DNA from: an uncultured Eubacteriales bacterium
GTDB lineage: Bacteria; Bacillota; Clostridia; Oscillospirales; Oscillospiraceae
Length of the DNA stretch: 64,000 nt
Reading direction: 5' to 3'
Assembly (NCBI GenBank): GCA_902477135.1
Contig: CABSFR010000002.1
Location: forward strand, 9,649 to 73,648
The notes under the pieces were generated by a model, which had not been told where the DNA came from, searched no databases, and saw only the letters and a program-made list of their open reading frames with translations. Within the stretch, counting starts at the first letter, position 1; every line of letters begins with the position of its first letter. This document shows positions 50,441 to 53,400 of this stretch, piece by piece. The position numbers and the translations under genes are program-made.

Positions 50441-53400
50441 ATGCAAGTTAAGGATGTCATGTACGGCAAGACCGAGCGAAAGAGCTACGCCAAGTATCAG
50501 GAGATCCTCCAGATGCCGAATCTGCTGAAGATCCAGCGCGATTCCTACAACTGGTTCCTGAGCGAAGGCCTGCGCGAGGTATTCCGCGACGTCGCGTCCA
50601 TCTCCGACTACACCGGCAATTTGGAGCTGTCCTTCCTGGACTATTCTCTCGACGAGAAGCCGAAGTACACGGTGGAGGAGTGCAAGGAGCGCGACGCTAC
50701 CTACGCAAAGCCCATCAAAGTCCGTGTCCGCCTGCTCAATAAGCAGACGGGCGAGATCAAGGATCAGGAGATCTTCATGGGCGATTTCCCGCTCATGACC
50801 AACGGCGGCACCTTCGTCATCAACGGCGCGGAGCGCGTTATTGTCTCCCAGATCGTCCGCAGCCCCGGTATGTACTACGGCGACACGGTGGACAAGGCCG
50901 ACCAGCACATCTACTCGGCGACCGTCATCCCTTATCGCGGCGCATGGCTGGAGTATGAGACGGATCTGCAAAGCTGCATCTATGTCCGCATCGACAAGAA
51001 CCGCAAGCTGCCCGTCACGTGGCTCATCCGCGCGCTTGGCGTTGAGACCAACGCGCAGATCACCGAGATGTTCGGCACGGACGCATTCCTCCACGCGACC
51101 ATCGAGAAGGACACCTGCAAGACCCGCGAGGAAAGCCTTCTGGAGATGTACCGCCGTCTGCGCCCGGGCGAGCCGCCTACGGTAGACAGCGCCGTGAGCT
51201 ATCTGGAAGCCCTCTTCTTCGACCCGCGCCGCTACGATGTGGCAAAGGTCGGCCGTTATAAGTTCAACAAGAAAATGGACCTCTGGAGCCGCCTGAGCGG
51301 ACAGGAGCTTGCAGAGCCGGTCGCCGATCCGCGCACGGGCGAGATCCTTGCCATGCCCGGCGAAGTGCTCAGCCGTGAGCGCGCCAAGGAGCTTTCCGCG
51401 CGCGGCGTCTGCGAGGCGGTCATCACCGTAAACGGCAAGCCCCATAAGATGTTCTCGAACTACATGGTCGACATGGCGAACTTCGTGGAGTTCGACCCGA
51501 AGCAGTACGGCATCCATGAGCGCGTCAGCCGCAGCGTCCTGTTTGAGATGCTCGACACCGTTCCGGCCGACGGCTGGAAGGACGCGCTGGAGGAGCGCCG
51601 CGACGACCTGATCCCCAAGCATATCACCCGCGAGGACATCCTTGCGTCCATCAACTACCTGACGAGCGTGATCGTCGGCGTCGGCACCACCGACGACATC
51701 GACCATCTGGGCAACCGCCGCCTGCGCTGCGTCGGCGAGCTGCTGCAAAATCAGTTCCGCGTCGGCTTCACCCGTCTGGAGCGCGTCATCCGCGAGCGTA
51801 TGACCGTGCAGGATCTGGACACCGTGACCCCGCAGAGCCTCATCAACATCCGCCCTGTCACCGCGGTCATTAAGGAGTTCTTCGGCTCCTCCCCGCTGTC
51901 GCAGTTCATGGATCAGAATAACCCTCTGGCCGAGCTGACCCACAAGCGCCGTGCGCGACGTCCACTACAGCCACTATGGCCGTATGTGCCCCATCGAGAC
52001 GCCGGAAGGTCCGAACATCGGCCTGATCAACTACCTTTCCAGCTATGCCCGTATCAATGAGTATGGCTTTGTGGAAGCGCCTTACCGCAAGGTCGTGCGC
52101 GAGTACGACGAAAACGGCAAGTACGTCGCCTCCCGCATCACCGATGAGGTGGAGTATATGTCCGCCGATGTCGAGGACGACTACCACATCGCGCAGGCCA
52201 AGGAGCCGGTCGATGAGAACGGCTATCTGCTCAATGCCCGCATTACCTGCCGTCACCGCGACGAGATCATCGCCGTTGACCGAGAAGTGATCGACTATCT
52301 CGACGTTTCGCCGAAGATGATGACCTCCATCGCTACGGCATTTATCCCCTTCCTCCAGAACGACGACGCGAACCGCGCACTGATGGGTGCGAATATGCAG
52401 CGGCAGGCCGTGCCGCTCATGGTCACGGAGGCACCGATCGTTGCCACCGGCATCGAGCGGAAGTGTGCCGTGGACTCCGAGGTCTGCATCAAGGCGTCGG
52501 GCGACGGCATCGTGACCCGCGTCAGCGCGGACATGATTACCGTGCGCTATGACGACGGCATCGTGACGGACTACAAGCTGACCAAGTTCGCCCGCTCCAA
52601 CCAAGGCACCTGCATCAACCAGCGCCCGATCGTTACGGTCGGCGAGCGCGTGCAGTATGAGCAGGTCATCGCCGACGGCCCTGCCTGCTCGCAGGGCGAG
52701 ATCGCGCTGGGCAAGAACGTGCTGATCGGTTTTGTCACGTGGGAAGGCTACAACTACGAAGACGCGATCCTCCTCAACGAGCGCCTGACGCGCGAAGACG
52801 TCTTTACCTCCATTCACATCGAGGAGTATGAGACCGAGGCGCGCGACACCAAGCTCGGGCCGGAAGAGATCACCCGCGACATCCCCAATGTCGGCGAGGA
52901 TACCCTCAAGGATCTGGACGAGGACGGCGTGATCCGCATCGGCGCAGAGGTCAAGTCCGGCGACTACCTTGTCGGCAAGGTCACCCCGAAGGGCGAGACC
53001 GAGATGACGGCCGAGGAGCGCCTGCTGCGCGCGATTTTCGGCGAAAAGGCGCGCGAGGTGCGCGACACCTCTCTGAAGGTGCCGCACGGCGAGGCCGGTA
53101 TCATCGTGGACGTCAAGGTCTTCACCCGCCAGAACGGCGACGAGCTGTCGCCGGGCGTGAACAAGGTCGTCCGCGTCTACATCGCCCAGAAGAGAAAGAT
53201 CTCCGTCGGCGATAAGATGGCGGGTCGCCACGGCAACAAGGGCGTCGTTTCCCGCATCCTGCCGGAGGAGGATATGCCCTTCCTGCCCGACGGCACGCCG
53301 CTGGACATCGTTCTGAACCCGTTGGGCGTTCCTTCCCGTATGAACATCGGTCAGGTGCTGGAGGTTCATCTGGGCTACGCGGCGCACGCGCTGGGCTGGA

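Follow-up and report, generated by a model that had tools for sequence, protein, structure and literature searches.

The rpoB gene recorded in the window, the 64-kb stretch of DNA analysed here, is a broken rpoB: 53 nt are missing from its interior, and the coding sequence is distributed over two open reading frames (ORFs), the second in the +1 frame relative to the first. In our judgement the frame-break almost certainly arose as a local error of assembly or consensus in a low-depth metagenome-assembled genome (MAG) of a human-gut member of the Oscillospiraceae and is not a property of the organism (rough probability 0.9), because all the other assemblies of this bacterium, including the near-identical contig L005, have an intact rpoB. 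A preliminary description of this DNA had already named an assembly or consensus error as the most likely cause, on the ground that a strain could not live with such a lesion in its only rpoB, and the comparisons given below support it: the lesion is private to the window, L005 is intact, and the two halves of the gene show no amino-acid change.

The reading frame of rpoB in the window

We searched the window by tblastn with P0121, the intact beta subunit of conspecific genomes. Residues 1–504 of this protein match 50441..51952 and residues 522–1247 match 51951..54128, both at 100% identity, whereas residues 505–521 are absent, that is 17 residues, equivalent to 53 nt. Reading base by base, the upstream frame has CGT (R) at 51950–51952 and the downstream frame has GTG at 51951–51953; the segment between THKRR and VRDVH is not contained in a single uninterrupted frame, and the frame shifts by +1 at 51951/51952. 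The ORFs, the codon phase, the tblastn search and the alignment at the DNA level (see below) all agree with the preliminary description, which had reported a frame broken by a 53-nt deletion, a stop at 52060 and a continuation in the +1 frame from 51951.

The domain content of the two ORFs tells the same story. Pfam profiles PF04563 and PF04561 are found on the 5' part, and the 3' part matches PF04565 at profile positions 34–68 only, followed by PF10385, PF00562 and PF04560; it thus comprises the second half of Rpb2 domain 3 and then domains 4/5, 6 and 7. Taken together, the two ORF products present the Rpb2 domain set 1, 2, 3, 4/5, 6 and 7 in order with the second half only of PF04565, whereas the intact P0121 matches profile positions 1–68 and has all six Pfam domains. 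The break takes out the middle of Rpb2 domain 3 (the fork domain), amounting to approximately half of the Pfam domain.

Alignment of the window with conspecific contigs gives a clean 53-nt gap. Its exact position is ambiguous by a 2-nt CG microhomology, as seen in the conspecific sequence AAGCGC CG|CCTG ... TTCGA CG|TGCG; this replaces the GT microhomology that had initially been suggested, and the bases shared at the breakpoint become CGT if the left flank is taken as a foreign CGT allele (see below). Besides the synonymous substitution at 51940 (Table 1), there is a second possible one, C to T at 51952, which is present in one of the two possible alignments. Around the junction we found no direct repeat able to explain slippage, just chance-level repeats of 8–17 nt. 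The tblastn search recovered no second rpoB in the 64-kb window, and the missing 51 nt had 0 matches elsewhere in the window at up to 3 mismatches, so that the segment has not been translocated within it. The downstream rpoC is intact; its mechanically called ORF begins with an ATG at 54061, overlapping the 3' end of rpoB, and the gene calls of relatives all start at the equivalent of 54136, giving 1230 aa.

Table 1. Coordinates of the rpoB locus and of other features in the window
Feature	Position	Strand	Description
SLH surface protein, 754 aa	10323..12587	-	CotH and SLH
SLH surface protein, 1829 aa	12865..18354	+	NAGPA, purple acid phosphatase N, Metallophos and SLH
rpoB 5' part, codons 1-504	50441..51952	+	Rpb2 domains 1 and 2, then ~17 residues from the start of domain 3
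51-nt stretch ending at the junction	51902..51952	+	found without mismatch in rpoB of four other Oscillospiraceae species
Substitution G to C	51940	+	ACG to ACC, synonymous; 11-12 nt upstream of the junction; G in all conspecific contigs
Deletion junction	51950..51953	+	53 nt absent (GCCTGTCCGCGCTTGGCCCCGGCGGTCTGAGCCGCGAGCGCGCTTCCTTCGAC in L005); every conspecific contig has them
rpoB 3' part, +1 frame, codons 522-1247 and stop	51951..54131	+	opens with GTG at 51951
Out-of-frame tail of the 5' ORF	51953..52060	+	ARRPLQPLW..., 35 codons and stop codon 52058-52060
rpoC, intact, 1230 aa	54136..57828	+	4 nt after the rpoB stop

The missing segment and its conservation

The peptide lost in this species is LSALGPGGLSRERASFD, and not the motif ending in ...AGFE given in the preliminary description. 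Between the flanking blocks of bacterial beta subunits that description had placed about 17 residues, which holds across our comparisons: exactly 17 residues lie between HKRR and [VI]R[DE][VI]H in 131 of the 134 relatives fetched, and LSALGPGGLSRERASFD is read in 120 of those 131; the other 3 gave no match to the search pattern, one of them (P0131) being a 676-aa fragment. The same gap of 17 residues is seen against solved RpoB structures (LSALGPGGL[ST]RERAG.E in Clostridioides and Bacillus), and the segment is present in 58/58 solved RpoB/Rpb2 matches. Because the spacing is exactly 17 residues in 131/134 relatives, the gap in the window is beyond chance.

By alignment offset to E. coli beta, the window retains the chain up to R529 and lacks residues 530–546. 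This placement identifies the lost residues, by homology, as the end of Rif cluster I and fork loop 2 of the fork domain, in accordance with the earlier assignment of the site to the rifampicin-resistance region and the fork loop. Loss of this segment together with a frameshift is lethal in a single-copy gene. Indels that confer rifampicin resistance are known from rpoB cluster I (E. coli beta 507–533) and the RRDR of M. tuberculosis; they are short and in frame (1–4 codons) and spare fork loop 2. The lesion in the window resembles them in affecting the same region of the gene but is unlike them in losing 17 residues as well as the frame, which is incompatible with function.

Conspecific assemblies carry the intact gene

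A protein search with the joined translation of the two window ORFs led to a 90%-identity cluster. One of its members is P0121 (1247 aa; 25 contigs in NCBI and ENA); apart from its 17 additional residues it agrees with the window product throughout, over 1230 shared positions. The exact rpoC product of the window is on at least 22 contigs, with an intact rpoB of 1247/1248 aa upstream at 8/8 of the loci shown. Many independent assemblies of human-gut samples, from Hadza, Nepal and other cohorts, contributed the contigs with P0121 or the exact rpoC, and in all of these an intact rpoB of 1247/1248 aa lies in the same gene neighbourhood.

The preliminary description had proposed an alignment with rpoB of the closest relatives as a check, and in that alignment all the conspecific contigs carry the 53 nt. 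They are 99.2–99.6% identical to the window in DNA; every alignment breaks at 51947–51951 with an offset of 53 nt, and all of them read ACG CAC AAG CGC CGC CTG TCC ... TTC GAC GTG CGC GAC across the site. The 53 nt are intact in L001–L008, L013–L020 and L035, about 20 independent conspecific contigs in all, and none of them has the deletion. The junction sequence had 0 matches in JGI metagenome contigs, and the truncated ORF products of 539 aa and 726 aa had no exact match on record in the protein/contig collection. A scan of GTDB species representatives with a pattern fitting both the intact and the deleted allele returned four other species alone, all of them intact. The species of the window was not among the results of that scan; its representative is perhaps absent, broken or masked at the site, and the scan speaks for those four species alone.

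Across conspecifics rpoB differs by 11–18 nucleotides and 0–1 amino acids (dN ~0), a pattern pointing to strong purifying selection on this copy in conspecific genomes. The rest of the window rpoB shows no further lesions or relaxed selection, with 0 amino-acid differences from P0121 over 1230 codons.

A same-strain contig differs from the window only at and beside the junction

A near-identical sibling of the window is L005 (ENA ERZ28620637, scaffold_250, sample SAMN03283282). Over 23,565 aligned bases it differs from the window by the 53-nt block (GCCTGTCC...CTTCGAC in L005), by the base at 51940 and possibly by that at 51952; all else is identical. As the other conspecific contigs differ from the window by 49–76 substitutions per 12 kb, we take L005 to be of the same strain, and its identity to the window makes it plausibly of the same sample too. 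Both substitution sites lie within 12 nt of the junction; simple arithmetic gives a probability of ~1e-3 for one substitution, and ~1e-6 for two, to fall within +/-12 nt of it by random placement.

Several contigs covering other parts of the window belong to the same close circle: L032, L033, L036 and L037 are 100% identical to it, L030 has one mismatch in 19.4 kb and L031 is 99.96% identical (L030–L033, L036 and L037 come from ERZ28620637, the NCBI MAG GCA_900772155.1 and ERZ1748966). Another 100% match is the Logan contig L050 from run SRR1761709, over window 44052..45648. The rpoB lesion is thus private to the window with same-strain assemblies intact, as in a local assembly error.

The sequence to the left of the junction may have a foreign component. 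The stretch of 51 nt that ends there matches the representatives of four other species (UMGS838, UBA6468, CAG:110 and a Hadza MAG; ~80% identity overall), and the match covers both variant bases, C at 51940 and T at 51952. Within it, the 38-mer 51902..51939 is common, without mismatch, to this species and those four, and the last 13 nt before the junction are the allele of the other species, an argument that comprises one or two bases in total; bases specific to the species itself resume in the window from 51957. The lesion is thereby located at the 3' edge of sequence held in common, exactly and over 38 nt, with co-occurring Oscillospiraceae. Two possible donors of the ACC...CGT allele were considered and rejected: the inverted second rpoB of L007/L019 (see below) has a different sequence there, and the related mosaic lineage L035 has the allele of the window's own species.

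Low coverage and assembly trouble at rpoB and rpoC

The preliminary description had also raised the possibility of a MAG or a low-coverage region, and the identical siblings bear this out, with coverages of ~3.7–4.1x and fragmentation inside rpoB and rpoC. Two of them carry SPAdes-style contig names, NODE_540 (L032) with cov_3.7 and NODE_443 (L036) with cov_4.1; k-mer coverage of about 4x in identical siblings indicates that the population was thinly sequenced. L037 (GCA_900772155.1, contig 53) starts at window position 53606, inside rpoB; L036 (ERZ1748966) starts at 54612, inside rpoC; and several Logan contigs begin at the end of rpoC. L045 (ERZ1748966 NODE_2726, cov 3.8; equivalent to window 43980..51439) is 100% identical to the window until about 50750 and then has a divergent rpoB allele up to its end, which lies inside rpoB; therefore, in the assembly graph of one and the same low-coverage population two rpoB variants come together. 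Low coverage (3.7–4.1) and non-unique sequence (the shared 38-mer, along with contig breaks and allele switches) are thereby both found at this locus, again as in a local assembly error.

A smaller defect is seen in the same population at another locus: L031 (ERZ28620637, scaffold_175) lacks 1 nt at window position 27211, at the 3' end of rplC, relative to both the window and L030, and the resulting frameshift lengthens rplC from 239 to 245 aa. This is an independent small assembly error.

Other irregularities of rpoB were observed among the conspecific contigs. Some contigs that are otherwise >99% identical (L013:6253-9996, L023, L035 and L045) have a divergent block at rpoB nt ~300–1431, equivalent to window positions of about 50750..51870, which in L013 amounts to 232 nucleotide and 78 amino-acid differences; contigs of the L013 type are identical again from rpoB nt 1432, ~80 nt upstream of the window junction. 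This block reflects either real recombination within the species or recurrent chimeric assembly. L007:1-7384 and L019:1-3636 (ERZ27287082 k141_347598) have, directly upstream of the locus, an inverted second rpoB (1241 aa) together with rpoC, both from another species and joined at ~47824 of the window; this is probably a chimeric metagenome contig.

A possible origin of the junction

MAGs have been described to contain local assembly errors that damage coding sequences, as well as composite ORFs that can be chimeric, and assemblers are reported to stop or err at low coverage or at points that are non-unique among co-occurring populations (Chen, Anantharaman, Shaiber, Eren & Banfield 2020, Genome Res 30:315; PMC7111523). 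The window shares with such cases a short stretch of consensus that corrupts a coding gene and for which no read support is expected, low coverage and a non-unique site; the error is diagnosed here by comparison with about 20 assemblies and a near-identical sibling.

One course of events would account for both the deletion and the variant bases beside it. The low-coverage path of this species in the assembly graph may have been interrupted in the conserved stretch ahead of the fork loop, and beyond the shared 38-mer a few bases from a foreign or erroneous branch could have been added to the contig end. Two contig ends would then have been abutted with the ~53 nt between them dropped, which leaves a clean deletion with mismatches beside it. 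The two sides of the junction overlap by 2–3 nt (CG/CGT); therefore, plain de Bruijn traversal is insufficient and an extra step must be assumed. The ends may have been joined without a gap during scaffolding, by a gap closer, by polishing in which foreign reads were mis-recruited, or through one chimeric read that spans a coverage gap.

Alternative explanations

The alternative that survives best, although improbable in our estimate, is a real 53-nt deletion in the DNA of the sample, present in a dead or minority lineage, in one copy of a polyploid chromosome or in extracellular DNA, which the assembler then followed. At about 4x coverage a minority molecule could indeed set the assembly path, and the clean sequence of the window with its 2-nt CG microhomology fits a deletion arising in replication or repair. 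A single spontaneous deletion does not, however, predict that a base 11 nt away should be replaced by that of a foreign allele, and the deletion is absent from every other assembly, the near-identical ones included. Moreover, it is established that an out-of-frame loss of the fork loop in the sole rpoB cannot be propagated.

We regard it as very unlikely that the window holds a physical null allele beside rpoC, tolerated through an intact copy (a second chromosome copy of a polyploid cell or a paralogue elsewhere) and carrying a short gene-conversion patch from another Oscillospiraceae species. Should the deletion prove real, against all indications, it would be remarkable for a bacterium to live with a null allele at its canonical rpoB locus.

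Paralogues of rpoB occur in some actinomycetes, and the copy beside rpoC might by the same token be a true pseudogene, with a functional second rpoB elsewhere in the genome. No observation favours this. Against it stand the 64-kb window, which has no second rpoB, the 1230 codons free of other lesions and amino-acid changes, an intact rpoB at this locus in the same-strain L005, and the strong purifying selection on this copy in conspecific genomes; we give a pseudogene less credence still than a tolerated null allele.

Hardly credible is a functional break, be it a programmed +1 frameshift yielding a beta subunit without the 17 residues or two polypeptides that assemble like the archaeal B'/B''. 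The downstream frame does open with GTG at 51951, in +1 relative to the upstream frame, but no Shine-Dalgarno-like purine run precedes it (...GAGCTGACCCACAAGCGCC GTG), half of the Pfam Rpb2 domain 3 is gone, and no relative shares the break, all of them having the 17 residues. Natural splits of polymerase genes, such as the archaeal rpoB'/rpoB'' and the cyanobacterial and plastid rpoC1/rpoC2, are conserved throughout a lineage, with translation start signals of their own, and, as far as we know, lose no residues at the split site. The window resembles them in having a large subunit as two ORFs but differs in that its break is not conserved, has no start signal and costs 17 residues. Translational bypass or programmed frameshifting was likewise rejected, as residues are missing rather than extra and the break occurs in no relative.

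Finally, an excision made once the assembly was finished, when the record was edited or processed, would fit with the window's exact products not being on record in the protein/contig collection and its sequence not being among the GTDB scan results, but it has a negligible likelihood, since simple excision would not also turn 51940 into the allele of another species, and the absence from the collections is equally explained by a source that was not included or was masked.

Implications for the use of this record

An assembly error thus being the preferred reading, rpoB from this record is unsuitable for phylogeny or resistance calling, as the preliminary description had cautioned. The gene is a standard single-copy marker for phylogeny, completeness scoring and the calling of rifamycin resistance; an annotation of this record would report it as a pseudogene or in two fragments, lacking the resistance-determining residues. 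The hazard is a general one: conserved stretches that co-occurring relatives share at the exact k-mer level are weak points of low-coverage metagenomes, and here sibling assemblies of the same population break or become chimeric in the same gene.

Other features of the window

The rpoB-rpoC pair (50441..57828) is without rplJ-rplL upstream and lies ~9 kb downstream of the S10-spc-alpha operons with rpoA-rplQ (window 26100..41700). Between rpoA-rplQ and rpoB are genes for an acetyltransferase, a Polysacc_synt protein, a NUDIX protein, a DAG-kinase-like protein, a CDP-alcohol phosphatidyltransferase, an RsmE-like protein, a polysaccharide deacetylase, MntP and a second NUDIX protein. This region also varies between strains: L002, L003, L006 and L008 have an insertion of ~0.9–1 kb at the equivalent of window ~44335..44361 with a gene for a Peptidase_M50 protein of 180 aa, which is absent from the window, L004 and L005, and the intergenic stretch 41904..42689 is likewise strain-variable. 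Far upstream of these genes, the window encodes two SLH surface proteins on opposite strands (Table 1).
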